This document shows positions 5,450 through 56,765 of a stretch of 64,000 nt of DNA, in pieces. Source of the DNA: Candidatus Omnitrophota bacterium. GTDB taxonomy: Bacteria; Omnitrophota; Gorgyraeia; Gygaellales; Profunditerraquicolaceae. The notes beneath the pieces were generated by a model. It did no database searches and had not been told where the DNA came from. It worked only from the letters and a program-made list of their open reading frames with translations. The position numbers and the translations under genes were made by a program. Numbering within the stretch: position 1 is the first letter of the stretch; the number at the start of each line of letters is the position of its first letter. The stretch spans positions 15,576-79,575 of the forward strand of contig JBDRKE010000023.1 of the NCBI GenBank assembly GCA_043814315.1. The letters run 5' to 3'.

Positions 5450-5551
5450 AAAATTCCGAATTCCAAACGCCAAATTCCAAACACAGAGCTTCGGACATTG
5501 GGATTTGTTTGGGATTTGTTTGGGATTTGTGATTTGTAATTTGGGATTTTT
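5450..5551. repeat. Word-built imperfect hairpin (ccaaa / tttggg words), rplV|rpsC gap
   Basis: A/C-rich arm aaattccgaattccaaacgccaaattccaaacac opposite the tandem ttgggatttgt x3 arm. Confidence 0.85.
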
Positions 5552-5897: not shown

Positions 5898-6157
5898 TTA
5901 ATGAGCGCTAAACTTACGAAAGCACGAAGTGCAACGTAAGTTTATGCGCGAATTAACCCCCCACCACTTTTTAAATACACTTGAGATATCTTACGGTATT
6001 GCTCCCCCTCCTACCCCATTCTGTAAATCACACGCTTGTTACAAAAAGTGGTGGGGGGTAAGTTCAGACATAAATTTATGTTCGCTTGCCGCACAAGCGG
6101 CACACCGGCTGTTCCGATACAGCCGGGTGCTCGCTCCATAAATTTAGTCCTCACTTA
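5898..6157 (-). repeat. Junction element family 1, full copy (modules C-B-A), rpsS|rplV
   Basis: Shares TAAGTGAGGAC..., the ACCCCCCACCACTTTTT/AAAAAGTGGTGGGGGGT stem, and GCGCAT-AACTTACG..CGTAAGTT-AGCGCTCATTAA with the other copies. Confidence 0.9.
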
Positions 6158-6467: not shown

Positions 6468-6596
6468 CAAAATCCAAATGTCAAAGCACAAAGCTTAAAA
6501 TGCGCACAAAACACAAAATCCAAAACAATCAGGCTTTTATTAGGATTTTGAATTTTGAATTTATTTTGTGCTTTGAATTTTGTCATTTGAATTTAT
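6468..6596. repeat. Word-built imperfect hairpin (caaaat / attttg words), rplB|rpsS gap
   Basis: caaaatccaaatgtcaaagcacaaa... opposite ...tttgtgctttgaattttgtcatttgaattt. Confidence 0.85.
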
Positions 6597-6598
6597 TC

Positions 6599-7429
6599 TT
6601 ACTTTCTTCTCTTAATGATAAATTTATCCGAAAAACGAATCTTCCTCGTTTTATAGCCTTTCGTGGGCATTCCCCAGCGGCTCACCGGATGGGGATTTCC
6701 TTGCCCGGATTTGCCTTCGCCTCCCCCGTGCGGATGATCCACCGGATTCATGGCCAGGCCTCTTACCGTAGGCCTGATACCTAACCAGCGCTTTTTCCCG
6801 GCTTTTCCCAAGATAACAGCCTCATGCTCAATATTGCCTACCTGGCCAATAGTGGCATGGCAATCAAGATTCACGAGCCTGACTTCCCCTGAGGGCATTC
6901 TCAGATGGGCGAAATCTCCTTCTTTTGCCATTATCTGAGCACTGCCCCCCGCAGACCTGACGATCTGGCCTCCTTTTCCTTTATTGATTTCAATGTTATG
7001 GATAAGGGTTCCGGAAGGTATGTGCCTTAGAAGAAGGCAATTGCCGATTTTGAGTTCCGTATCTTTCTGATTACTTGAGACAACCAAATCCCCGACACTT
7101 AACCCCAAAGGAGCTAAAATATACCTTTTTTTTCTGTTAGGATATTCAATCAAGGCAATCCTTGCCGAACGGTTGGGATCATATTCTATTGCCTGGACTT
7201 TTCCCGGCACGTCAAACAGATCCCTTTTGAAATCAATAAGCCTTAACATCCTCTTGTGGCCGCCACCGCGATGCCAGACCGTAATCCTGCCGTAAACGTT
7301 CCTGCCCCCCTTTTTCTTAAGAGGAATGATCAGGGATTTTTCGGGCTTGGCCTTAGTGATCTCCGAAAAATCAGGCCCGCTCATATGGCGCCGGGAGGGT
7401 GTTGTGGGTTTAAACTTTATAAGTCCCAT
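6599..7429 (-). CDS. rplB: 50S ribosomal protein L2
   Basis: uL2-like ([18 protein letters not shown] ... [10 protein letters not shown]); no SD, preceded by the family-1 element. Confidence 0.95.
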
Positions 7430-7430
7430 G

Positions 7431-7637
7431 TTTAATGAGCGCTTAACTTACGAACACAATAGTGTTCGTAAGTAAATGCGCGAATTAACCCCCCACCACT
7501 TTTGCTATAACCTATGCTATATTGAAAGTGGTGGGGGGTAAGTTCGGGCATAAATTTATGTTCGCTTGCCGCACAAGCGGCACACCGGCTGTTCCGATAC
7601 AGCCGGGTGCGCGCTCCATAAATTTAGCCCTCACTTA
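7431..7637 (-). repeat. Junction element family 1, copy with short module-B loop, rplW|rplB
   Basis: Same modules; the module-B loop is only about 20 nt; overlaps the rplW 3' end. Confidence 0.9.
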
Positions 7638-13270: not shown

Positions 13271-13539
13271 TTTTAATGAGCGCTTAACTTACGAATCCCG
13301 AAACTTCGGGATGAGTAAGTTAATGCGCGAATTAACCCCCCACCACTTTTTAAATACACTTGAGATTAAATCTTACGGTATATCTACCCCTCCCACCCCA
13401 TCTAACAAATCACGCGTTTGTTACAAAAAGTGGTGGGGGGTAAGTTCGGACATAAACTTATGTTCGCTTGCCGCAGGAGCGGCACACCGGCTGATCCGAT
13501 AAAGCCGGGTGCGCGCTCCATAAGTTTAGTCCTCACTTA
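13271..13539 (-). repeat. Junction element family 1, full copy, rpsG|fusA
   Basis: All three modules; the rpsG stop TAA is the first triplet of TAAGTGAGGAC. Confidence 0.9.
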
Positions 13540-14007: not shown

Positions 14008-14267
14008 TTTTAATGAGCGCTTAACTTACGCACACAATAGTGTGCGTAAGTTAATGCGCGAATTAACCCCCCACCACTTTTTAAATACACTTGAGATATC
14101 TTACGGTATTGCTCCCCCTCCCACCCCATTCTGTAAATCACACGCTTGTTACAAAAAGTGGTGGGGGGTAAGTTCGGACATAAACTTATGTTCGCTTGCC
14201 GCAGGATCGGCACACCGGCTGATCCGATAAAGCCGGGTGCGCGCTCCATAAGTTTAGTCCTCACTTA
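14008..14267 (-). repeat. Junction element family 1, full copy, rpsL|rpsG
   Basis: All three modules; near-identical to the 5898 copy in the module-B loop. Confidence 0.9.
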
Positions 14268-26722: not shown

Positions 26723-27681
26723 TTTATGGCCAACCGAATGGCTTCGATTAATGAACACGGATCCGCCAGATGCCTTTTTTTAGCAATATCGAAGGCCGTT
26801 CCGTGCAAAGGAGAAGTCCGCACAAAGGGAAGGCCCAGCGTCATGTTGACCCCAAAGTTTTCTCTGAATAATTTCAGGGGGATGAGGGCCTGGTCATGGT
26901 ACATAGCAATCACGGCATCGTAAGAGCCTTGAAAAGCCCTGGCAATGGCAACATCCGAAGCCAAGGGGCCCTCTAAATCTTTTATTTTGTTTTTTAACTT
27001 TTTTAAGACGGGCTTTACGAGCTTATTCTCTTCCCAGCCGATAACTCCGTTATCGGAGGCATGGGGATTTAATCCGCAAACGACCAGCCTTGGGTGCTTT
27101 AGTAAAAACAATATTCTTAAAGCATGATACGTCATCAAAATGGTCTTGGATAACCTTGCGGCGGCTAAGGCCTGGGAGACGCAGGACAACGGTATGTGGC
27201 GGGTCGCCAGACTAAATCTTATCCGCCTATTTAAAAGCATCATCACTAAATCTTTGGTATGGGTCTTTTCGGAAAAATACTCTGTGTGCCCCGCATATCG
27301 CAAAGACGCCCTTTTCACTGCCTCTTTGGAAATAGGGCAGGTCACCAGGCAATCTAGTTCTTTGTTTCTTAAAAGCTCTAAGGCCTTGTCCAGATATTCT
27401 ATAGACGCCCAGCCGTATTCCGCCCTGACCTTTCCAAACTCGAAACCCACTCTATTGACATTCTTCAGATCTACAAAATTGAATTTTTTGGATTTTGGAT
27501 TTTGCCTGCCTGCCGGACAGGCAGGGATTTTGGATTTTTCAAAAACCCATGCATCCCCTATCACCGTGAACTCTGCCTCGGGCTTCAGATAACTAAGGGC
27601 TTTGGCCGTGATGGCCGCTCCGATCCCGGAAGGATCGCCCATCGTAATTCCGACTCTTATCTTTCCTTTCTGTTTACTCAT
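26677..27681 (-). CDS. pdxA: 4-hydroxythreonine-4-phosphate dehydrogenase
   Basis: GITMGDPSGIG N-terminus and HTEYF, PHASDNG, HGTAFDIA blocks. Start taken at ATG 27681; the ORF-track start 27738 is a TTG inside repeat DNA. Confidence 0.85.
   Translation of the reverse strand: MSKQKGKIRVGITMGDPSGIGAAITAKALSYLKPEAEFTVIGDAWVFEKSKIPACPAGRQNPKSKKFNFVDLKNVNRVGFEFGKVRAEYGWASIEYLDKALELLRNKELDCLVTCPISKEAVKRASLRYAGHTEYFSEKTHTKDLVMMLLNRRIRFSLATRHIPLSCVSQALAAARLSKTILMTYHALRILFLLKHPRLVVCGLNPHASDNGVIGWEENKLVKPVLKKLKNKIKDLEGPLASDVAIARAFQGSYDAVIAMYHDQALIPLKLFRENFGVNMTLGLPFVRTSPLHGTAFDIAKKRHLADPCSLIEAIRLAIKCTLNQRRDSARISW
27485..27540. repeat. cctgcctg-ccgga-caggcagg hairpin flanked by ggattttgg direct repeats, inside pdxA
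   Basis: Hairpin at 27505-27525; direct repeats on both sides; read in frame as KSKIPACPAGRQNPKSKK. Confidence 0.8.
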
Positions 27682-27786: not shown

Positions 27787-28851
27787 TCATGAGTTATCCT
27801 GAAGTATCTTGATGTACGCCTTCTTTTTGAGCCCATCAAGCCAATTCGAAAACTGCTCCTGCATTTTTAAATCGAAGAGATAGGCCTGGATTCTCACCTG
27901 GGCCTCTGAAAGGGTAAGTTGTCGCGGAGGTGTTATCTTGAGTAGTTTGAAAATGTAAAATTTGTTGTTGACTTTTAAGGGCTGAGAGTATTCGCCCGGA
28001 TTTAAGCTGCAGACCTTCTCTTCTATATCCTGGCGAAGCCCTCCATCGCGCTTAGCCACAATCTTATCGACTGTAAGAGGGAATCTTTTCTGTAAATCCT
28101 CCAATTTCTGTCCGGATCTAAACAGATTCTCGAACTCTCTGGCTGAGTCTTCCCTGTCTGTGTCCAGTATAACGATGTCGCATTCACGCTCTTCTCCAGT
28201 TACAAATTCCTTCATGTTTTTGTTATAAAAGGTCGTGACTTCATCGGGCCTGATCATGATTTTATCCTGGACGCTTTGCTCTACTATCATATACATAAGC
28301 ATTTGCTCCCGTATCTTCCTCTCCAGATCCGCCTGAACCAGGCCTTGTTTGGCTAAGTCATTCTGAAAATCTGCCTCCGAGGAGTAATGCCTTCTGATCT
28401 CGTTGATCTTTGCCTTGATCCTATTATCGTCTACCTTCACGTTTATGGCCTTGGCTTCCTGCAAAATAAGACGGTCCTCGATCAATTTCTCCAACAGATC
28501 CTTCCTTGTGGCCTCAATGCGTTTTTCGGCCTCGGCTTCATTATATTCCCTGGACAGCTGCAGCTGTGTAAAATTGAAAAAATCATTCAGGTCCCTCTGG
28601 GTAATTGCCTCGTTATTGACGACGGCAACGATTTTATCCTGCGCATAAACGGTAGAAATTCCAAATACAAAATTCCAAATAAGCACCAATACCCAAATGA
28701 CCAAAAAACGAAACTTAAAATAATGAAAAATTGGGATTTGGGTACCTCGACTCCGCTCGATACCAATGGTGAACGAAGTCGATCCATTGGAATTGGCATT
28801 TGTTTGGGATTTGGGATTTGGAAATTTGGATTTTAAGAAGTGATTAGTCAT
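27787..28851 (-). CDS. surA: SurA-like periplasmic chaperone / parvulin-type PPIase
   Basis: Signal-peptide-like VIWVLVLIWNFVFGISTVYA, SurA-N-like helical region and one parvulin-like domain; surA-pdxA-rsmA synteny. The first ~45 codons are repeat words, so the true start is probably downstream (e.g. TTG 28704). Confidence 0.6.
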   Translation of the reverse strand: MTNHFLKSKFPNPKSQTNANSNGSTSFTIGIERSRGTQIPIFHYFKFRFLVIWVLVLIWNFVFGISTVYAQDKIVAVVNNEAITQRDLNDFFNFTQLQLSREYNEAEAEKRIEATRKDLLEKLIEDRLILQEAKAINVKVDDNRIKAKINEIRRHYSSEADFQNDLAKQGLVQADLERKIREQMLMYMIVEQSVQDKIMIRPDEVTTFYNKNMKEFVTGEERECDIVILDTDREDSAREFENLFRSGQKLEDLQKRFPLTVDKIVAKRDGGLRQDIEEKVCSLNPGEYSQPLKVNNKFYIFKLLKITPPRQLTLSEAQVRIQAYLFDLKMQEQFSNWLDGLKKKAYIKILQDNS

Positions 28852-33176: not shown

Positions 33177-33281
33177 GCTTACTCCTTAATTTTAAGAAAA
33201 TATAATAATACGTGCAACCTCAAATCCCAATGACTAAAACTTACTGTTTGTGCTTTGGAATTTGTTTGTAATTTGAAGCTT

Positions 33282-33334
33282 GCCCCGTTAGAAATTTTGA
33301 ACGACAATTGGTTAAGAAAATATTTTTAACGGGC
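33282..33334. repeat. Related gccccgttagaaa ... tttttaacgggc hairpin in the secDF|yajC gap
   Basis: Imperfect inverted repeat sharing the cccgtta core. Confidence 0.7.
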
Positions 33335-33906: not shown

Positions 33907-34030
33907 TGTAATCCTCCTTCAATGAGCCCCGCTGCATTCTTGCATTCGCAAGAATGCAAGAAGCGGGGCGAATTGATCCCGAGCCTGCGAAGAAAATTTC
34001 TTTGAAATTTTCGAGCGTTTAGGCGAGGGA
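33907..34030 (-). repeat. Leader repeat family 2, upstream of rpsP
   Basis: TCCCTCGCC..GAAAATTTC/GAAATTTTC hairpin..GGCTCGGGATCAATT-CGCCCCGC..GCGGGGC-TCATTGA-AGGAGGA. Confidence 0.75.
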
Positions 34031-35521
34031 CTACATGTTAATCGCCTCTATCAGCGCTTTAGCCTTATTCACCGATTCAAGATATTCCTTTGCGGGAACC
34101 GAATCCGCAACAATCCCCGCTCCCGCCTGCACGTAGGCGAAACCGCCTTTGACCACGATAGTCCTAATCGTGATACATGTATCCATATTATGCGAAAAAC
34201 TGAAATACCCCACGCAACCCGCATAAACCCCGCGCCTTAAGTTTTCTAACTCGTCAATAATCTCCATGGCCCGGATTTTCGGGCTGCCGGTCACGGTGCC
34301 GGCGGGAAACGCGGTACGCAACACATCATAGATATCGAATCGCTTTTTGTCAAGTGTTCCTCGAACTTCACTGACCAGATGCATGACATGGGAATATTTT
34401 TCTATGTTCATAAATTCGCTTATTTTCACAGTGCCGGCTAAACTGACCCTGCCCAAATCATTCCTGCCCAGGTCCACCAGCATGATATGCTCTGCTTTCT
34501 CTTTCTCGTCTTTAATCAATTCTTCTGCCAGTTTTCTATCTTCTTCTTCTGCGGCCCCTCTTTTACGCGTGCCTGCAATGGGCCTTGTCTGAATAAACCC
34601 CCCCTCGCAGCGCACCAGCATCTCGGGAGAAGACCCTATCAAAGAAACGTCTTTAAACTGAAGAAAATACATGTAAGGCGAAGGATTCAGGCTCCTTAAA
34701 TTTCTGTAAATTTCAAATTCTTCGCACGCTATCTTGGTTTTAAAACGCTGGGATAAAACAACCTGAATGACATCCCCTTTTCTAATGTAACCTTTGGCCT
34801 CCTTTACCATATTTTGAAATTCGGATTTAGTGACATTGGGGGAAATTTTCGATTTACCGGCTCTTTTCTTGCCCGCCTGGGCCTCAGGGCCCAAGGAAGC
34901 GCTAAATAGTTTTTGAATAGCCTTTATCTTTCTAACGGCGCGCTCATAAATTTTCTTTTTCATGGCGTACCTTGCGCGGAGCGACTTCGGCAATAGCGTA
35001 TTGGCGACGATCTTTATGGTGTGATTGACATGGTCAAAAATCAAAATGGTGTCCGTCAGAATAAAAATACAATCGTCTAACCCCAGGTCGTCCGGATTTT
35101 TGTCGGGGATATTTTCAAAAAAACGCGCCGTATCGTAACTCATAAAACCGACCAGCCCGCCATAAAAACGCGGCAATCCGGGGACAGGGGTGGCCTTAAA
35201 GCCTTTCATGATGCGCTTAATCTCCTCTAATGGCGTATCCTCAGTAATGAAACGCCTCACGGATTTACGGTGGGGAAAGTGTATCTCAATGGACCTTGCC
35301 TTGCTTCTGAATATCAAGGAAGGGTCGCTTCCCAAAAAAGAGTAACGCGCTAACTTTTGCTGCCCCTCCACCGATTCAAGCAAAAAGGCATAGTCGCTTT
35401 TCTTCATTCTTAAAAAGGCAGACACCGGCGTATCCAGATCCGCGTTGATCTCGCTATAGACGGGAATCACATTTGCTACTTTTGTAAGTTTTAAGAATTC
35501 CTTTAATGACGGTTTAACCAT
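34031..35521 (-). CDS. trpE: Anthranilate synthase component I
   Basis: Chorismate-binding enzyme with the N-terminal YAFLLESVEG..ARYSFLG TrpE signature; 496 aa. Other MST-family enzymes not excluded. Confidence 0.75.
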   Translation of the reverse strand: MVKPSLKEFLKLTKVANVIPVYSEINADLDTPVSAFLRMKKSDYAFLLESVEGQQKLARYSFLGSDPSLIFRSKARSIEIHFPHRKSVRRFITEDTPLEEIKRIMKGFKATPVPGLPRFYGGLVGFMSYDTARFFENIPDKNPDDLGLDDCIFILTDTILIFDHVNHTIKIVANTLLPKSLRARYAMKKKIYERAVRKIKAIQKLFSASLGPEAQAGKKRAGKSKISPNVTKSEFQNMVKEAKGYIRKGDVIQVVLSQRFKTKIACEEFEIYRNLRSLNPSPYMYFLQFKDVSLIGSSPEMLVRCEGGFIQTRPIAGTRKRGAAEEEDRKLAEELIKDEKEKAEHIMLVDLGRNDLGRVSLAGTVKISEFMNIEKYSHVMHLVSEVRGTLDKKRFDIYDVLRTAFPAGTVTGSPKIRAMEIIDELENLRRGVYAGCVGYFSFSHNMDTCITIRTIVVKGGFAYVQAGAGIVADSVPAKEYLESVNKAKALIEAINM

Positions 35522-36724: not shown

Positions 36725-36845
36725 AAATTCAAATGACAAAATCCAAAATTCAAAACAAATCCAAAATTCAAAACAAAAGATTTTCGATTTTTGATTTTGT
36801 GCTTTGTGCTTATTTTGTGCTTTGTTATTTGTTATTTGGATTTAT
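36725..36845. repeat. Word-built hairpin (caaaat / ttttg words), lipoprotein|hisF gap
   Basis: aaattcaaatgacaaaatccaaaattcaaaacaaatccaaaattcaaaac opposite gattttgtgctttgtgcttattttgtgctttgttatttg. Confidence 0.8.
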
Positions 36846-38060: not shown

Positions 38061-38124
38061 AAATTCCAAATCCCAAGCAAATCCCAAATCAAAAACTATT
38101 TTGGGATCTTGACATTTGGATTTA
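38061..38124. repeat. Word-built hairpin (aaatccc / gggat words), hisH|hisA gap
   Basis: aaattccaaatcccaagcaaatcccaaatc opposite ttttgggatcttgacatttggattt. Confidence 0.8.
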
Positions 38125-38127
38125 TCA

Positions 38128-38742
38128 CTACAATTCAACAAAATTTTTTAAGATTTTCAACCCTACGCTCTGGCTCTTTTCCGGATGAAACTGTACCCCA
38201 TAGAGGCCATCCTGCCAGACCATAGCAGCAAAATCCAGACCATAAGGCGTAGTCGCCGCCACTACATCAGTTTCCCTCGGCTGGGGATAATACGAATGAC
38301 AAAAATAAACAAAGGAATTATCTTCAATGCCTTTTAATAAAGGGCACTCCTTTTGGATTTTGGATTTCTTTAATTGGTTCCACCCCATATGCGGTACCTT
38401 AAGCCCATCCGCTTGCTTAAATTTTTTGACCTTGCCTTTTATGAATCCCAGGCCTTTTGATTCCCTGGCTTCTTCACTCTCCTCGAAGAATAGCTGCATA
38501 CCCAAGCAGATCCCTAAGAGGGGTTTATGGTTGCTGACGTATTGACGTAAACAACTGATGAGATTCCGCTTTTTCAATTCACGCATAGCATCCTCAAAGG
38601 CGCCTACACCCGGAAGCACGCACTTTTTTGCTGATGCTATAGCCTCAGCCTTATTGGTAACAATCGTCTTGGCACCGGTAAACTCCAAGGCTTTATGAAC
38701 GCTGTGAATATTCCCCATGCCGTAATCAATAATTGCAATCAT
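38128..38742 (-). CDS. hisH: Imidazole glycerol phosphate synthase glutaminase subunit
   Basis: MIAIIDYGMGNIHSV ... GICLGMQ ... FHPEKS triad motifs. Confidence 0.92.
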   Translation of the reverse strand: MIAIIDYGMGNIHSVHKALEFTGAKTIVTNKAEAIASAKKCVLPGVGAFEDAMRELKKRNLISCLRQYVSNHKPLLGICLGMQLFFEESEEARESKGLGFIKGKVKKFKQADGLKVPHMGWNQLKKSKIQKECPLLKGIEDNSFVYFCHSYYPQPRETDVVAATTPYGLDFAAMVWQDGLYGVQFHPEKSQSVGLKILKNFVEL

Positions 38743-38761
38743 GTGTCATATAATTCAGAAT

Positions 38762-38820
38762 CCAGAAACCAGTCCTTCGACTACGCTCAGGACTGGCACT
38801 GAGCAGAGTCGAAGTGCCAG
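38762..38820. repeat. Palindromic repeat family 3, hisB|hisH gap
   Basis: 59 nt identical to the reverse complement of 42618-42676 (checked base by base). Confidence 0.9.
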
Positions 38821-38854
38821 TAACCAGATAGCGGTAATTATTTTCAACAGTAAC

Positions 38855-39501: not shown

Positions 39502-39525
39502 CAAGATCGGGTCTTGTAACTCATT
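39502..39525. repeat. 24-bp repeat caagatcgggtcttgtaactcatt in the hisD|hisB gap
   Basis: Identical to the reverse complement of 46924-46947. Confidence 0.85.
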
Positions 39526-39559
39526 GCCTATCAATCTGTTTCAAGTCCCGGTCTTGAAT

Positions 39560-40786
39560 TTATTGAAACCTTACCTTGACCGAATCCAGATGCTTGCTTA
39601 ATCCTTCGATACCAGCGATTTTCTCCAAAGGCTCTCTTACTTTCTCCAGCGCTCTTTTCGTATAACTGATGATATGGCTGCTTTTGACAAAGTCATAGGC
39701 GGATAGCCCGGAAAAAAACCTCGCCGTGCCATGCGTAGGCAACACATGGCTAGGGCCCGCCACATAATCACCGACAGCCGCAGGGCTATAAGGCCCTAAA
39801 AAGATGGCGCCGGCGTTTTTTATGCCTTTAAGTAACCTTTGCGGATTCTTAACCATGATCTCAAGGTGTTCGGGTGCGATCTGATTGGCGATCTCAGTTG
39901 TCTTCTCCAAATTTTTAGTCAAAATAATAAAGCCGTCCACATTTTCTAATTGTGCCTTGACCTCGCGCGCCAGGCTTTTGGAATTCGTAATCAATACCGC
40001 AAGCCCTTTAGAGTGCTCAGCCTGTGCCCGCAGGTCTGCGGTTACAAATCGGGGGTCGCTGTGGCGGTCGGCAATAATAACAAGTTCCGTAGGGCCGGCT
40101 ATCATATCGATATCCACCTGCCCGAAGACCTGCCGTTTGGCCTCGCTCACGTAGATATTGCCGGGCCCGACGATCTTATCGACGCGCGGGATGGTTTTTG
40201 TCCCGTAGGCCAAGGCCGCGATACCTTGGGCTCCGCCCACGCGGTAAATCTCATCCACTTTTAAGAGGTCCGCAACCACAAGGATATGCGGGTTGATCTG
40301 ACCGTGTTTATCCGGAGGGCTAACCAGTATAATTCTTTTCACCTGCGCGATCTTTGCCGGAAGGACCGTCATATAAACCGTAGAAACCAAAGGTGCCGTG
40401 CCCGCCGGTATATACACGCCGACCTTATCTAACGGGACATAGTTTTCACCCAGCACCGCTGCATCGGCATCTTTTATTCTCCAGGATTTCCTAATGCTTT
40501 TGCGGTAAAACTTATTCACATTTTCAATGACAACCTTGAGGCTGGATACAAAATTAGGGCTGATATTCTGATAGGCAGCGCTGATATCGATTTGAGAAAC
40601 CTTGATCTGTCTTAACGATAACTTGACTCCGTCAAACTTCCTGGTGTACTTAAGCAATGCCTCATCCCCAGCCACGCGCACATCCTCAATAATCTCCCTG
40701 ACCCGCTCTTCAATGCGCTTGTTTCTTGTGAGGCCCCGGTTATAAATCTTATCTAATTTTTTGCTGCTAAAACGGATTATTTTCAT
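39560..40786 (-). CDS. hisD: Histidinol dehydrogenase
   Basis: 408 aa, HisD-like (IDMIAGPTEL, AQAEH, GDYVAGPSHVLPT). Confidence 0.9.
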   Translation of the reverse strand: MKIIRFSSKKLDKIYNRGLTRNKRIEERVREIIEDVRVAGDEALLKYTRKFDGVKLSLRQIKVSQIDISAAYQNISPNFVSSLKVVIENVNKFYRKSIRKSWRIKDADAAVLGENYVPLDKVGVYIPAGTAPLVSTVYMTVLPAKIAQVKRIILVSPPDKHGQINPHILVVADLLKVDEIYRVGGAQGIAALAYGTKTIPRVDKIVGPGNIYVSEAKRQVFGQVDIDMIAGPTELVIIADRHSDPRFVTADLRAQAEHSKGLAVLITNSKSLAREVKAQLENVDGFIILTKNLEKTTEIANQIAPEHLEIMVKNPQRLLKGIKNAGAIFLGPYSPAAVGDYVAGPSHVLPTHGTARFFSGLSAYDFVKSSHIISYTKRALEKVREPLEKIAGIEGLSKHLDSVKVRFQ

Positions 40787-43455
40787 CTTGGGATTTGCCT
40801 GATAGCCGCTTTTAATTTTTCGAGTGCATTTTTGTAATTTTGAGGCTTACTGCCTCCTGCCTGCGCAAAATCCTTTCTTCCCCCGCCGCTGCCCCCGATC
40901 TCGGACGCTACCTCTTTAATAAGCCTTGAGGCATCCACACCTTTGGCGCATAAGTCCTGCGTCACCCCTATAGCCAACCAGATCTTGGCTTCTGCGCAAG
41001 TGCTTGAAATAATAATCGCATTCGTGGTTTTCTCCTTCGCTAAATCTACGCTTTGGCGTAAGGTATTCATGTCTAAATCCGGCTCATTTTGCTCAATCAA
41101 TTTTATGCCATTGATCAACTCGGCTTTTTGAATCGATTCCTCAAGGGATAAGCGTACCGTATTAAGGCGCTGGGCGCTTAATTGTTTCTCCAGTTCCTTT
41201 AAGCGAACCATTCTCTTCTCGATCTCCTGGGATAAATTCGGCTCAGGGACGCTTAATCTCTCGGCGATATCTCTGACAACACGCTCCTCTTCTTTGATAA
41301 TCTTATAGGCGGTTTTTCCCGTAACCGCTTCGATTCTTCTTATGCCGCTGGCCACAGACCCTTCCTGGGTTATCTTAAACAGGCCGATTGAGCCCGTAGA
41401 GTCCAGATGGGTTCCGCCACACAGTTCCTTAGAGAAGTCTCCGACACTCACCACACGCACCTTATCTTCGTATTTTTCGCCGAAGAAAGCCAATGCCCCT
41501 GACTTCTTGGCTTGCGCTAAAGCCATTGGCTTGACAGAAAGCTGATGGTTATTCAGGATATAATCATTAACCACTTCTTCAATTCTGTCCAGCTCTTCTT
41601 TTTTGATATCCTTAAAGTGCGTGAAGTCAAAACGCAATCTGTCGTGGGCCACCAGAGAGCCCCGCTGTTTGACGTGCGAGCCTAAAACCTTTCTTAAAGC
41701 CGCCTGCAAAAGGTGGGTTGCCGTATGGTTTCTGGCTATGGAGAGCCGGCGTTCGACATCGGCTTTTGCCAAGATGGTATCATTTTTTTTGAAGCTGCCG
41801 GATTTGACTTTTCCGATATGGACGAAGCAAGAGCCGAACCTCTTCGTATCAAAAACCTCAAAAACATTCCTTCCCTTAATAATCTCACCCGCATCTCCTA
41901 CCTGGCCGCCTGACTCTGCATAGAAAGGAGTCTTATCCAATACCAGGACTGCTTCATCCTGTTGGCTGATCTTTTTTGTTTCAGTATCGCCCTTGACTAT
42001 TTTCAATATCTTTGTTTTTAGAGCCATCTCCTTATAGCCTGAAAATTGAGTCGCTTTGACGTGGTAAAGCAGGTCCTTATCGCTAAAGACATCCCCTTTC
42101 ATGGCGCTTTGCAGCTTGGAGCGCTTTTTCTGCTCTGAAAGTTCCTTTTCTAGTATGTCTTTAGAAATTTGAATGCCTTTTTTTTCTAGCCAATTCAACG
42201 TCAAATCTAAAGGCATCCCATGGGTATCATATAGCTGAAAAGTAATCCTGCCAACCTCCTTGGGGTTGGGGCTGTCCTGAAACCCTTTAAATTTTTCATG
42301 CAAAAGGGCTTCGCTGGAATTTAATGTTGCCAGAAAACTCTTCTCTTCCGCCTGGATAATCTCAGAGATATTCTCCTGCCGGCCCCTGAGTTCGGGATAA
42401 TAAGATTTCATGGTCTCCGCTACGACAGGCACCAATTTATACAGAAAGGCATGCGCCCACCCCATGGCCCTTAAATGCAGGGTGCACTTACGGATCAGTT
42501 TTCTTATCACGTAACCCCTGGCTTCATTGGAAGGCAGGACTCCGTCATAAATGGCAAACACTATGGCACGGATATGGTCGGTTACTGCATAAATCAATTC
42601 TTTCTGGTTCCTGGTTCCTGGCACTTCGACTCTGCTCAGTGCCAGTCCTGAGCGTAGTCGAAGGACTGGTTTCTGGTTTCTGGCTATTTCTTTTATAATC
42701 GGGATAAACAAATCCGTCTCAAAATTATTCGCTACCCCCTGCATGACCGCAGCCAGCCTCTCTAAACCCATACCGGTGTCTATATTCTTCCTGGGCAAAG
42801 GCTCTAATACGCCTCCTTCTTTGCGGTTAAACTGGGTAAAGACGAGGTTCCAGACTTCCACAAAACGCCCGCAGCCGCAGGCAGGAGAACAATCCGGCTT
42901 CCCGCATCCGGCGCCTGAGCCTACATCATAAAATATCTCCGAGCAGGGGCCACAGGGGCCATTAGGCCCTTTTGCCTTAGCCTCTGAAGGCCAGAAATTT
43001 TCTTTATCCCCTAATCTGATGATTTTGTTTTCCGGAATCTCAATGGAATCGCGCCATATCTTATAGGTTTCGTCATCGTCTTTATAGACCGAGACCCAAA
43101 GCTTCTCGGACGGAATACGTAGTTCCCGGGCCAAAAATTCCCAGGCGTAGAGAATCGCTTCTTTTTTGAAATAGTCTCCGAAGGAAAAGTTTCCCAGCAT
43201 TTCAAAAAACGTGTGGTGACCGCTGGTCTTGCCGACTTTATCCAGGTCATCGGTGCGCAGGCACCGCTGGCTGGAGGAAGCACGCTTCAAGCCTCTGCCT
43301 ATCCCCAGAAATTCTTTCTTGAATTGATTCATTCCCGCAGGCGTAAACAATACCGTAGGGTCATCCCCGGGGATCAAAGAGCCACTCTCGATAATCTTGT
43401 GATTTTTTGATTTAAAAAAATCTAAAAACTTTTTTCTTAAGATATCTGCCTGCAT
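40783..43455 (-). CDS. alaS: Alanine--tRNA ligase
   Basis: 890 aa with class II core (FTPAGMNQFK, RCLRTDD), editing-domain HTATHLL and C-terminal DHHA1-like region. Contains an in-frame repeat insertion at 42604-42684. Confidence 0.95.
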   Translation of the reverse strand: MQADILRKKFLDFFKSKNHKIIESGSLIPGDDPTVLFTPAGMNQFKKEFLGIGRGLKRASSSQRCLRTDDLDKVGKTSGHHTFFEMLGNFSFGDYFKKEAILYAWEFLARELRIPSEKLWVSVYKDDDETYKIWRDSIEIPENKIIRLGDKENFWPSEAKAKGPNGPCGPCSEIFYDVGSGAGCGKPDCSPACGCGRFVEVWNLVFTQFNRKEGGVLEPLPRKNIDTGMGLERLAAVMQGVANNFETDLFIPIIKEIARNQKPVLRLRSGLALSRVEVPGTRNQKELIYAVTDHIRAIVFAIYDGVLPSNEARGYVIRKLIRKCTLHLRAMGWAHAFLYKLVPVVAETMKSYYPELRGRQENISEIIQAEEKSFLATLNSSEALLHEKFKGFQDSPNPKEVGRITFQLYDTHGMPLDLTLNWLEKKGIQISKDILEKELSEQKKRSKLQSAMKGDVFSDKDLLYHVKATQFSGYKEMALKTKILKIVKGDTETKKISQQDEAVLVLDKTPFYAESGGQVGDAGEIIKGRNVFEVFDTKRFGSCFVHIGKVKSGSFKKNDTILAKADVERRLSIARNHTATHLLQAALRKVLGSHVKQRGSLVAHDRLRFDFTHFKDIKKEELDRIEEVVNDYILNNHQLSVKPMALAQAKKSGALAFFGEKYEDKVRVVSVGDFSKELCGGTHLDSTGSIGLFKITQEGSVASGIRRIEAVTGKTAYKIIKEEERVVRDIAERLSVPEPNLSQEIEKRMVRLKELEKQLSAQRLNTVRLSLEESIQKAELINGIKLIEQNEPDLDMNTLRQSVDLAKEKTTNAIIISSTCAEAKIWLAIGVTQDLCAKGVDASRLIKEVASEIGGSGGGRKDFAQAGGSKPQNYKNALEKLKAAIRQIPR
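42618..42676. repeat. Palindromic repeat family 3 copy inside the alaS coding sequence
   Basis: 59/59 match to the reverse complement of 38762-38820; read in frame by alaS. Confidence 0.9.
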
Positions 43456-46892: not shown

Positions 46893-47002
46893 CAAGATCG
46901 GGTCTTGACATCGCTTGGTAAACAATGAGTTACAAGACCCGATCTTGACATAACTCTAAAGACCCGGTCTTGACATAACTCTACGATCTTGACATAACTC
47001 TA
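46893..47002 (+). repeat. 15-bp inverted repeat followed by three tandem cttgacataactcta units
   Basis: caagatcgggtcttg (46893-46907) / caagacccgatcttg (46933-46947). TTGACA occurs at 46905, 46945, 46970 and 46989. Confidence 0.85.
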
Positions 47003-47017
47003 AAAATATGTTAAAGT
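46989..47017 (+). promoter_or_regulatory. Promoter of the GAF-GGDEF gene, probably giving a leaderless mRNA
   Basis: TTGACA (46989-46994)-17 nt-TAAAGT (47012-47017). Only 7 nt separate the -10 box from ATG 47025, and there is no SD. Confidence 0.5.
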
Positions 47018-54290: not shown

Positions 54291-54401
54291 CTTAGCAAAT
54301 TCCAAGTACCAAGCTCCAAACTCCAAACTTTTATTTCGGTCATTGAGATTTCGGTTATTGGAGCTTGTTTGGGATTTGGAATTTGAAATCTGGGATTTAA
54401 C
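54291..54401. repeat. Word-built hairpin (ctccaaa / tttggag words), etfB|etfA gap
   Basis: caaattccaagtaccaagctccaaactccaaac opposite ttggagcttgtttgggatttggaatttgaaatctgggattt. Confidence 0.8.
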
Positions 54402-55184: not shown

Positions 55185-55435
55185 TAATGAGCAGATAACT
55201 TATATCGTTCTTAAGAACGATATAAGTTATAGCGTCCCTTATTTTATTTGTTTATCAGCGTCTGCGAATTAACCCCCCACCACTTTTTGAACAGACGCTT
55301 GAGATAAAATTTACGGTATGGCTTTTCCCCACGCCATATTTAACAAAACCCTCACTAGCTACAAAAAGTGGTGGGGGGTAAGTTCGGCCAGACAACTTAA
55401 CTTCACTATCGTTCGTTAAGTTGTGGCCTTACTTA
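55185..55435 (-). repeat. Junction element family 1, divergent full copy, acyl-CoA DH|etfB
   Basis: Same module-B stem; modules A and C have different sequence but the same hairpin positions. Confidence 0.85.
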
Positions 55436-56584: not shown

Positions 56585-56755
56585 TGAACCTCCTCAATTT
56601 GCCCTCTATAGCAGATTCAACAAATTGATCCCGAGTATCCAGCTACTGCTTCTGTGATACGAGGGACTAATTTGCCCGCATCCAGAGGTTCGTAAAATTG
56701 ATCCCGAGCTTACGAATAAAATTTCACTGAAATTTTCAAGTGTTTAAGCGAGGGA
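56585..56755 (-). repeat. Leader repeat family 2, two tandem units upstream of the acyl-CoA dehydrogenase gene
   Basis: Two units, each with TCCCTCG..CTCGGGATCAATT..GGGCAAATT. The distal unit is close to the rpsP copy in the GAAAATTTCA..GAAATTTT segment. Confidence 0.75.
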
Positions 56756-56765
56756 TTTCAGTTCG

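Follow-up and report, generated by a model that had tools for sequence, protein, structure and literature searches.

The window analyzed here is a 64,000-nt stretch of a Candidatus Omnitrophota genome (contig JBDRKE010000023.1), and it contains the essential gene alaS, in which a palindromic repeat is read in frame. The gene, the repeat, and the short tandem arrays on either side of it lie as follows.

40783-43455, minus strand: alaS, encoding alanine--tRNA ligase (AlaRS), the host of the insertion; 890 aa from the ORF and its translation
42618-42669, minus strand: twin-hairpin element in alaS, 52 nt counting both bounding CCAG/CTGG tetranucleotides
42626-42637, plus strand: conserved 12-nt box TCGACTCTGCTC, the loop of hairpin A (42618-42645), from the box search and family consensus
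42650-42661, plus strand: inverted conserved box GAGCGTAGTCGA, the loop of hairpin B (42642-42669), from the box search and family consensus
42604-42621: heptamer array (CTGGTTC)x2.6 flanking the element, detected with TRF; encodes ..GTRNQKE
42666-42683: heptamer array (CTGGTTT)x2.6 flanking the element, detected with TRF; encodes ARNQK..

The alaS product matched PDB AlaRS catalytic fragments with E = 5.6e-117 and is 100% identical to an NCBI AlaRS labeled 'Candidatus Omnitrophota bacterium' (Pfam PF01411, PF07973, and PF02272). The preliminary description held that the repeat is read without stops, and the ORF does give ...FIPIIKEIARNQKPVLRLRSGLALSRVEVPGTRNQKELIYAVTDHIRA..., with the remainder of the gene intact. 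The size of the insertion, put at about 27 aa, had to be revised, since comparison with orthologues gives a net insertion of 48 nt, or 16 codons, read PVLRLRSGLALSRVEV within ARNQK-PVLRLRSGLALSRVEVPGT-RNQKE. The three closest relatives of this AlaRS (identities of 78, 76, and 72%) have lengths of 874-875 aa and are exactly 16 aa shorter at the insertion point, in agreement with the proposal that the insertion is lineage-specific. Once the 48 nt are removed, alaS reads ARNQKPGTRNQKE and the loop is 13 aa, equal to that of the relatives. The CCAGAAA/GAACCAG words next to the repeat lie outside the inserted unit and belong to the heptamer array; in the relative L001, the orthologous alaS loop is a pure (AGAAATC)x4.7 array with no hairpins.

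The AlaRS loop has 34 residues in the window, compared with a modal length of 18-19 in the 120 best homologues. A homologous segment in distant AlaRS had been named at the outset as an observation that would speak against an insertion; in E. coli AlaRS, the loop at this point is unrelated and has 12 residues. Besides the identical protein P0001, only P0065 and P0120 among the 120 homologues have box-like words in the loop, one box each and in different reading frames. AlaRS of the P0065 type with family boxes in the same loop were recovered on six contigs, and the loop holds repeat-derived sequence in many Omnitrophota. The alaS insertion itself is known from one assembly, and an exact-product look-up returned no other contig encoding the window AlaRS.

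The preliminary description had proposed mapping the insert on a structure. AlphaFold2 predicts a helix at residues 251-259, coil at 260-283 (pLDDT <50 at 265-281, with low values also occurring outside the insert), and a helix at 284-303. Ten-residue block means are 87-90 ahead of the insert and 75-89 past it. In this model, the insert is coil of low confidence with a confidently predicted helix on each side, and it is predicted to be disordered. The insert peptides had no family match in Pfam. An intron, an intein, and translational bypass were considered and dropped for this 48-nt segment, which has an open frame and contains neither a splicing domain nor a stop that would need bypassing.

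The element pairs two 24-nt hairpin modules in inverted orientation to form a doublet, 48 nt in total. Each module consists of a 12-nt loop, TCGACTNCGCTC, the conservation of which is partly a product of the search pattern, and a variable 8-bp stem. A direct repeat of 4-5 nt flanks the doublet (CCAG in alaS), and its complement lies at the center, common to both stems. In alaS, the layout is CTGG-CACT-box-AGTG-CCAG-TCCT-box'-AGGA-CTGG, and hairpins A and B have the central CCAG at 42642-42645 in common. The unit was described as an imperfect palindrome and folds as one, with -26.4 kcal/mol as RNA (z = -3.4) and -13 kcal/mol as DNA (z = -3.1).

Across the family, the 8-bp stems are paired at 89-90%, compared with 60% in shuffled and 28-50% in slid controls, and pairing ends beyond the 8 bp. 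The stems covary strongly, with 293-298 double-change cells compared with 94 in shuffles (0/500). The outermost 4 nt of the element vary, and the most common bounding word is TCAA. The direct repeats are CCAG in alaS, CTCAA in a TnpB gene, and TCAA in a HisH gene; in each case, a single copy remains once the 48 nt are removed. The boxes could serve as sub-terminal inverted repeats. Two resemblances were rejected as well: a tRNA-like origin (TTCGACT to a T-loop, GCTCAG..GAGC to a D-arm) has the wrong geometry, and CUGAGCA does not match the CUGANGA consensus of a hammerhead-like core.

A box search of the whole window returned 6 matches compared with 0.81 expected, and a 43-nt core had 2 matches compared with 0 expected from shuffles. 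Beyond alaS, the window contains two more copies of the element and an additional array.

38769-38820, plus strand: identical 52-nt element, inverted, in the hisB|hisH spacer; boxes at 38777-38788 and 38801-38812
28739-28790: third, diverged copy from the box search; boxes TCGACTCCGCTC and GAACGAAGTCGA
38351-38367: heptamer array (TTTTGGA)x2.4 inside hisH, detected with TRF; read KKSKIQK after GWNQL

The match that had drawn attention to the repeat was confirmed: 42618-42676 on the plus strand and the reverse complement of 38762-38820 agree at 59/59 positions, and the perfect match extends no further in either direction. The second copy is intergenic, as claimed, and sits inverted and 3.8 kb away in the 112-nt hisB|hisH spacer. 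This spacer is an insertion in its own right, since three relatives have hisB and hisH overlapping or directly adjoining. The copy is flanked by CCAGAAA-like heptamers across 38756-38842. Similarity between the alaS and hisB|hisH copies runs into the flanks, over ~73 nt with 2 mismatches or 87 nt at 90%. On either side, the two copies have ~10 nt of heptamer flank in common, which fits array recombination at least as well as transposition. Recent copying, also proposed earlier, is borne out by the 59/59 identity, while the third copy is far more diverged. The stems of that copy are different (CCAATGG/CCATTGG and GGTA/TACC), and it sits among heptamers of the CCAAATC type in the interval from the mfd stop to the SurA domain. 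The element has been gained or lost between related genomes: the window and L001 differ by presence or absence at three sites, alaS, hisB|hisH, and trpE|rpsP.

Heptamer repeats surround all three copies in the window and those of L001, L053, L056, L113, L115, and L131. With 21-nt flanks, 6/126 copies had heptamer flanks compared with 0.25% of controls, an enrichment of ~19-fold found only at lag 7. No heptamer enrichment was seen with 35-nt flanks, which, taken with the 21-nt result, limits the association with arrays to a subset of copies. The majority of copies are outside arrays. In L115, HisH has both a heptamer array and a 48-nt element in the loop that matches the window hisH array. AlaRS and HisH each show the same series, from no array, to an array, to an array with an element.

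The element is not private to this genome. A scan with the palindromic pattern found more than 118 loci among the matches listed, compared with ~0.5 expected by chance by our own calculation, and the record titles of the matches listed name ten phyla; dozens of these loci come from single genomes, namely one Chloroflexales MAG and Baaleninema PCC 7105. Hosts include Omnitrophota, Chloroflexales, Planctomycetota, Patescibacteria, non-Nostocacean cyanobacteria, and plasmids of Nostoc and Anabaena. A plasmid search gave only two weak matches, and the finished plasmid of Anabaena sp. 90 has one copy inside an annotated CDS. When metagenomes were scanned with the window's own half-unit, 10 loci were returned and none had the same doublet. 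The viral contig scan and phage BLAST found no phage copies and no sign of a phage vector.

In 109 copies of the element, read on both strands, the three frames are stop-free in 97%, 96%, and 3%. Each of 4/6 frames is free of stops in ~96-97% of copies, and the unit length is divisible by three. With four of six frames open and a length of 48 nt, roughly two in three random insertions would leave the gene they enter open. Long open frames span 36/126 copies, and at least 20 copies are in frame inside Pfam-supported genes. The hosts with Pfam support include AcrB, RACo, a histidine kinase, ArgRS, a glycosyltransferase, PilM, RsmE, GT9, methyltransferases, HisH, DJ-1, dCTP deaminase, IscB, and TnpB. 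Among these unrelated proteins, the element is read in differing frames and orientations.

Insertion limits can also be set in other host genes. TnpB paralogues in Baaleninema are exactly 16 aa shorter than the interrupted protein, and deleting 48 nt restores RHLKKHE compared with RHLTKHY; the direct repeat is CTCAA and the center TTGAG. In the TnpB of L065, the insertion is at an array-free site with just 5 nt in common. HisH of L115 has a 48-nt insertion as in TnpB, bounded by TCAA. In RsmE, the site is occupied alike in two species, the proteins of which are 84% identical.

A partner gene was sought next to the copies. The 150 neighboring ORFs match 247 families, none of which is common to the loci, and a RAYT/Y1 transposase is absent from the 25 most frequent Pfam families of these adjoining genes. 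Where Chloroflexales copies occur in pairs, the ORFs that separate them are ordinary genes with no transposase or common partner, and no parent IS was seen near the copies. Rfam at the gathering threshold gave no family match for the element in the window or in 11 further loci, and on the window, the gathering and permissive searches together returned just two tRNAs and chance-level miRNA matches (E = 0.18 or worse). The box 12-mers occur in the full-text literature only as unrelated primer sequences, and the element family is apparently undescribed.

The alaS segment is most likely one copy of a tiny mobile repeat, palindromic and non-autonomous, which the host tolerates and would translate without gaining a new function. 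According to this model, the element would have entered a tandem array of heptamers that was present in the AlaRS loop beforehand. The target may be picked by matching the tetranucleotide at the center and ends of the element, with heptamer arrays as preferred landing pads, and the conserved loops would be recognized by a trans-acting factor. Copies may persist where 16 added residues do no harm, for instance in linkers between domains or in loops at the surface. For AlaRS, we infer that the insert is translated and neutral, and it would most likely form a disordered extension of the loop that leads from the aminoacylation domain to the first helix of the tRNA-recognition domain.

Another possible explanation, of which we remain doubtful, needs no enzyme: gene conversion or replication template switching between the inverted heptamer arrays 3.8 kb apart, with the hairpins as mere cargo and stalling sites. 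This would account for the similarity that continues past the 52-nt unit, and it is consistent with the alaS array already present in L001, the enrichment of copies within heptamer arrays, and the lack of a transposase near the sampled copies. It leaves unexplained, however, why 12-nt loops stay constant while stems vary across records from ten phyla, and how the TnpB gene of L065 acquired its copy with only 5 nt in common at a site free of arrays. The hisB|hisH site of the relatives, moreover, has neither an array nor a spacer in which recombination could take place. An assembly artefact, in which the repeat induced a chimeric join in the MAG, would fit the single assembly and the lack of a second contig in the exact-product look-up, but we consider it very improbable: alaS is in register on both sides of the insertion, the insertion is exactly 48 nt with 4-nt repeat bounds, as in independent cases from isolate genomes, and related AlaRS genes with boxes in the same loop are found on several contigs, six for P0065.

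It is also improbable, though less so than an artefact, that the insert is a selected functional module, either as a peptide that alters AlaRS or as a hairpin, in mRNA or DNA, that controls alaS. The hairpin is stable, repeat-derived sequence recurs in the same AlaRS loop of many Omnitrophota, and the RsmE copy was retained between species. Against this stand the identical copy in a non-coding spacer, the different frames and orientations among unrelated host proteins, the single boxes in different frames in P0065 and P0120, the predicted disorder of the insert, and its absence from the nearest AlaRS relatives. The variable length of the AlaRS loop, and nothing further, would suit an ancestral segment of AlaRS that was lost elsewhere. 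We give this almost no credence, since the orthologue alignment refutes it: boxes occur only singly in P0065 and P0120 besides P0001, the E. coli loop is unrelated with 12 residues, the modal loop is 18-19 residues compared with 34, and the inserted DNA is identical to an intergenic repeat.

To our knowledge, in-frame palindromic repeats in proteins are textbook material for Rickettsia only. The preliminary description compared the alaS repeat with the Rickettsia palindromic elements (RPEs), which holds as an analogy and fails as a matter of membership. RPEs are described as ~105-150 bp and reported solely from Rickettsia (Ogata et al. 2000, as summarized in PMC10969869 and PMC3184786). Both kinds of element are palindromic, open-framed, in frame in unrelated housekeeping genes, and tolerated in the protein, while the unit here is 48 nt, built of 24-nt modules, and found under ten phylum labels. 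Its conserved loops and variable stems also set it apart from RPEs as they are described.

Within a genome, a REP family keeps its stem sequence and a 5' GTAG constant, whereas the element here conserves its loops while the stems vary. REPs are extragenic by definition and adjoin a RAYT gene, and REPINs are REP doublets mobilized by RAYT transposases (PMC3116915). Like REPINs, our elements are inverted doublets of short palindromic units that are non-autonomous and amplify within genomes; in contrast, at least 20 of our copies lie within genes, and the 25 most frequent Pfam families of the sampled neighboring ORFs include no Y1 transposase.

The cyanobacterial SDR units, reportedly described by Elhai and colleagues in 2008, are said to be 21-27 nt long in Nostocaceae and often to lie within tandem heptamer repeats. 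Their hairpins are reportedly backed by compensatory changes, and they are said to have a defined short target (SDR5 within HIP1). The 24-nt modules here fall within that size range and likewise form covarying hairpins, some of them embedded in heptamers. SDRs are reported absent outside Nostocaceae (PMC5861425). Our family is far wider than that; the comparison with SDRs is one of descriptions.

IS608 picks its target by a flanking tetranucleotide that matches one inside the element. The likeness to IS200/IS605 elements lies in this matching and in the hairpin ends; unlike them, our element has a center common to both hairpins, an apparent 4-5-nt duplication, and no linked TnpA, and in Baaleninema, it sits within TnpB and IscB genes as a passenger and does not form their ends. 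Intragenic MITEs, such as the Coxiella QMITE, Anabaena MITEs, and ERIC and BOX fusions, form in-frame fusions with ORFs (PMC10969869, PMC5896051). In-frame fusion to host ORFs and short flanking direct repeats (target-site duplication) are found in both; MITEs differ in being >100 bp and in having terminal inverted repeats that they owe to a parent IS, while our element has variable outermost bases and no parent IS was seen near its copies.

A broader reading, which we offer only tentatively, is that the 24/48-nt box hairpin is an undescribed, horizontally spread form of minimal mobile DNA. Its loops would be read by machinery acting in trans, its central tetranucleotide would direct targeting in a guide-like manner with heptamer arrays as landing pads, and it would be a codon-neutral generator of loop insertions in proteins, including aminoacyl-tRNA synthetases. 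Compared with the Rickettsia case, this is a much smaller in-frame repeat in free-living, mostly uncultured bacteria labeled as ten phyla, and its hosts include AlaRS, ArgRS, TnpB, and IscB. The series in AlaRS and HisH offers a concrete two-step route for the growth of protein loops, with a heptamer array followed by a hairpin element. The element accounts for odd low-complexity loops in metagenomic proteins, of the forms LRLRSG..S.VE and ST.L..ERSR, and such inserts in MAG genes should be taken as real features, not as assembly errors. The sharp search pattern, together with culturable hosts such as Baaleninema PCC 7105 and Anabaena sp. 90, provides a means of seeking the mobilizing machinery.

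The reverse complement of 38762-38820, in the hisB|hisH spacer, matches 42618-42676 at 59 of 59 positions, which verifies the exact repeat pair claimed in the preliminary description; these are the exact bounds of the perfect match. The flanks remain alike beyond it for ~73 nt with 2 mismatches, or for 87 nt at 90% (repeat pair I1), and a 43-nt core has two matches against none expected. Translating the intact open reading frame gave the inserted peptide as first read. The alaS segment has a folding energy of -26.4 kcal/mol in RNA form (z = -3.4) and of -13 kcal/mol in DNA form (z = -3.1). The encoded AlaRS is 100% identical to a deposited 'Candidatus Omnitrophota bacterium' protein.

Gene and diverged copy in the window
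40783-43455, minus strand: alaS (alanine--tRNA ligase), intact, 890 aa, from the open reading frame and homology
28739-28790: third copy of the element, diverged, with boxes kept and stems different, within a CCAAATC-type heptamer array

The 120 best AlaRS homologues were aligned. Exactly 16 residues are absent from the three nearest, which share 78, 76 and 72% identity and are 874-875 aa long. The lineage-specific insertion proposed earlier therefore stands as extra residues relative to the nearest relatives, with its size reduced from about 27 aa to 16 aa (48 nt). The alaS DNA reads GCC (AGAAACC)(AGAAACC)AG-[core]-(AGGAACC)(AGGAACC)AGAAAGAA, and the orthologous place in L001, a relative's locus, reads GCT (AGAAATC)x4.7 with the core absent. 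Deleting 48 nt from the window gene gives ARNQKPGTRNQKE and a loop of 13 residues, equal to that of the relatives. Since L001 has the array alone and the deletion restores this loop, the CCAGAAA and GAACCAG words, which the preliminary description places beside the repeat, are a tandem heptamer array of the host loop, outside the inserted unit. Apart from these corrections to insert size and heptamer words, the original observation was confirmed and its interpretation supported. CCAG stands as a direct repeat at the two ends of the 48-nt unit, and removing the unit leaves a single CCAG. By the same kind of comparison the hisB|hisH copy is likewise an insertion, because the two genes overlap or abut in the relatives' loci L001-L003 and are separated by a 112-nt spacer in the window.

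The unit is laid out as CCAG-TCCT-[TCGACTACGCTC]-AGGA-CTGG-CACT-[GAGCAGAGTCGA]-AGTG-CCAG, two mutually inverted 24-nt modules. Both modules are hairpins, with an 8-bp stem closed by a 12-nt loop (the box), and the central tetranucleotide is common to both stems.

The window AlaRS was modeled with AlphaFold2 from a 77-sequence alignment. The model has a helix at 251-259, coil at 260-283 and a helix at 284-303, with pLDDT below 50 at 265-281; ten-residue block means are 87-90 ahead of the insert and 75-89 past it. Against solved catalytic fragments the target-normalised TM-score is ~0.8. By alignment, the insert falls in the 12-residue E. coli loop KVTGATDLSNKS, which we take to have the aminoacylation domain on one side and the first helix of the tRNA-recognition domain on the other. 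All invariant AlaRS columns are retained. In our reading the 16 residues would be translated and form a disordered extension of the loop.

To define the family, one genome per species was scanned with the palindromic pattern TCGACTNYGYTC-N12-GARCRNAGTCGA, which found at least 118 loci. By our own arithmetic (4^-18 x 2^-4 x 6x10^11 positions), ~0.5 sites are expected by chance.

Host groups of the scan loci, taken from record titles
Omnitrophota: many MAGs and one SAG
Chloroflexales: one MAG, dozens of loci
Cyanobacteria: Baaleninema simplex PCC 7105 (dozens of loci); Coleofasciculus, Calothrix, Microcystis, Crocosphaera, Gloeobacterales, others
Further groups: Planctomycetota; Patescibacteria; Bacillota; Alpha- and Gammaproteobacteria; Bacteroidota; Acidobacteriota; Leptospiraceae

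Pairing in each 8-bp stem reaches 89-90% (76 distinct copies), compared to 60% when shuffled and 28-50% with the partner slid, and drops past the eighth pair. Cells changed on both sides number 293-298 versus 94 in shuffles, a value reached by none of 500 shuffles. G-U pairs are rare in the stems, as would fit a constraint acting on DNA or on both strands. The element has no match in Rfam, no copies were found in 2.9 million viral contigs or in phage records, and the box 12-mers occur in the searchable literature only as unrelated primers. A plasmid search gave two matches, both Nostocaceae; the finished plasmid of Anabaena sp. 90 carries one singlet (a single module) within an annotated CDS.

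The unit is 16 codons long, and its frames are stop-free in 97%, 96% and, for the third, 3% (109 distinct copies, both strands). In 36 of 126 copies an open frame runs through the element and on for 60 codons or more to either side, and for more than 20 of these Pfam confirms a real host gene.

Pfam-supported host genes
AcrB; RACo; histidine kinase; arginyl-tRNA synthetase (DALR domain)
GT4 glycosyltransferase; PilM; AAA/DUF4143 ATPase
RsmE, orthologous linker occupied in two species (proteins 84% identical)
GT9; methyltransferases; HisH; DJ-1; dCTP deaminase
In Baaleninema: IscB; two TnpB lineages

In alignment, element-free TnpB paralogues are short by exactly 16 aa, and removing 48 nt from the filled gene gives RHLKKHE versus RHLTKHY (direct repeat CTCAA, centre TTGAG). 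In Baaleninema simplex PCC 7105 the element interrupts the RRXRR domain in IscB genes. At three loci of this genome (L038, L067, L045) the right-hand box recurs in tandem every 15 nt (5 codons), which yields SEVEA repeats within TnpB genes and elsewhere.

A parallel series is seen in AlaRS and HisH, which are encoded in one operon region. AlaRS passes from no array (L002, L003) to an array (L001) to array plus element (window); HisH passes from no clear array (L001, L002) to an array (window 38351-38367, L003) to array plus 48-nt element with direct repeat TCAA (HisH of L115). Occupancy differs between the window and L001 at alaS, hisB|hisH and trpE|rpsP. Heptamer periodicity in the 21 nt adjoining copies is ~19-fold enriched, at lag 7 only (6/126 vs 0.25%); a coarser periodicity test was negative, and most copies lie outside heptamer arrays. 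In L131, inverted heptamer arrays surround a singlet at their centre.

The AlaRS loop, 34 residues in the window against a mode of 18-19 among the 120 homologues, is by these alignments a recurrent site. Homologues P0065 and P0120 each have a single box there, in differing reading frames. GLSP..GTVP words occur in this loop in 18 of 120 homologues and are encoded by GGGACTGTCCC palindromes in the alaS genes of these two (L132, L133). In L132, copies of the 15-nt direct repeat AGGGACTGTCCCTGA lie on both sides of the single box. At window ~27505-27525, TTTTGGA heptamers are followed by the GC-rich hairpin CCTGCCTGCCGGACAGGCAGG. Homologue P0007 has in its AlaRS loop the peptide word ACRQAG, which such a sequence encodes, a sign that this loop may also host a second palindromic family.

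The element is scattered, has multiplied within genomes, differs from one relative to the next and is framed by a short direct repeat, as expected of a mobile repeat. The combination of covarying stems with conserved loops implies some factor that would recognise the loop within the hairpin. The flanking tetranucleotide always equals the complement of the centre (CCAG/CTGG, TCAA/TTGA, CTCAA/TTGAG), and this suggests that the target may be selected by a match to the element's own sequence. IS200/IS605 elements choose their target by matching the element itself. Alternatively, copies could arise via template switching at short homologies, for which heptamer arrays would be favourable. That recombination alone produced the alaS copy seems rather unlikely to us. 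No linked gene was found near sampled copies or between paired copies.

The mobile-repeat reading invites comparison with known systems. Rickettsia palindromic elements behave alike, but the element differs from them in size and host. It has the doublet architecture of REPINs, but is not confined to extragenic sites and no RAYT was seen near copies. The small dispersed repeats (SDRs) of Nostocaceae, likened here by description, have units of similar size, a similar heptamer context and stems with compensatory changes, but their distribution is different. We filed the element among small palindromic mobile repeats able to reside in genes.

Several other features were noticed. L001 257-5185 is an SMC-like gene (1642 aa) with an intein (Intein_splicing and LAGLIDADG_3 matches); its 1084-aa L002 orthologue lacks these matches. 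A ~220-nt repeat family, with inverted arms AACCCCCCACCACTTTTT / AAAAAGTGGTGGGGGGTAAGTT ~70 nt apart, is present in the window as four complete copies and a partial one, and has no Rfam match. Many intergenic spacers contain palindromic heptamer arrays, (CAAAnnn)n then (nnnTTTG)n, which would form long imperfect hairpins; L001 has similar arrays.

Other repeats in the window
5935-6157, 7415-7637, 13317-13539, 14045-14267, 55264-55390: ~220-nt repeat copies
5464-5550, 6505-6594, 28793-28834, 33221-33296, 36725-36845, 38067-38120, 54301-54398: palindromic heptamer-array spacers

A 25-nt tandem repeat, AAGACCCGATCTTGACATAACTCTA x3, and its inverted partner, 7.3 kb off in the hisD|hisB spacer, account for 46934-47004 and 39502-39558 (repeat pairs D12, D14, I3). 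A 65-nt repeat is found at 33971-34035 and 56696-56760 (85% identity), one copy being in the trpE|rpsP spacer, adjoining a GC-rich hairpin, CGCCCCGCTTCTTGCATTC...GCAGCGGGGC.
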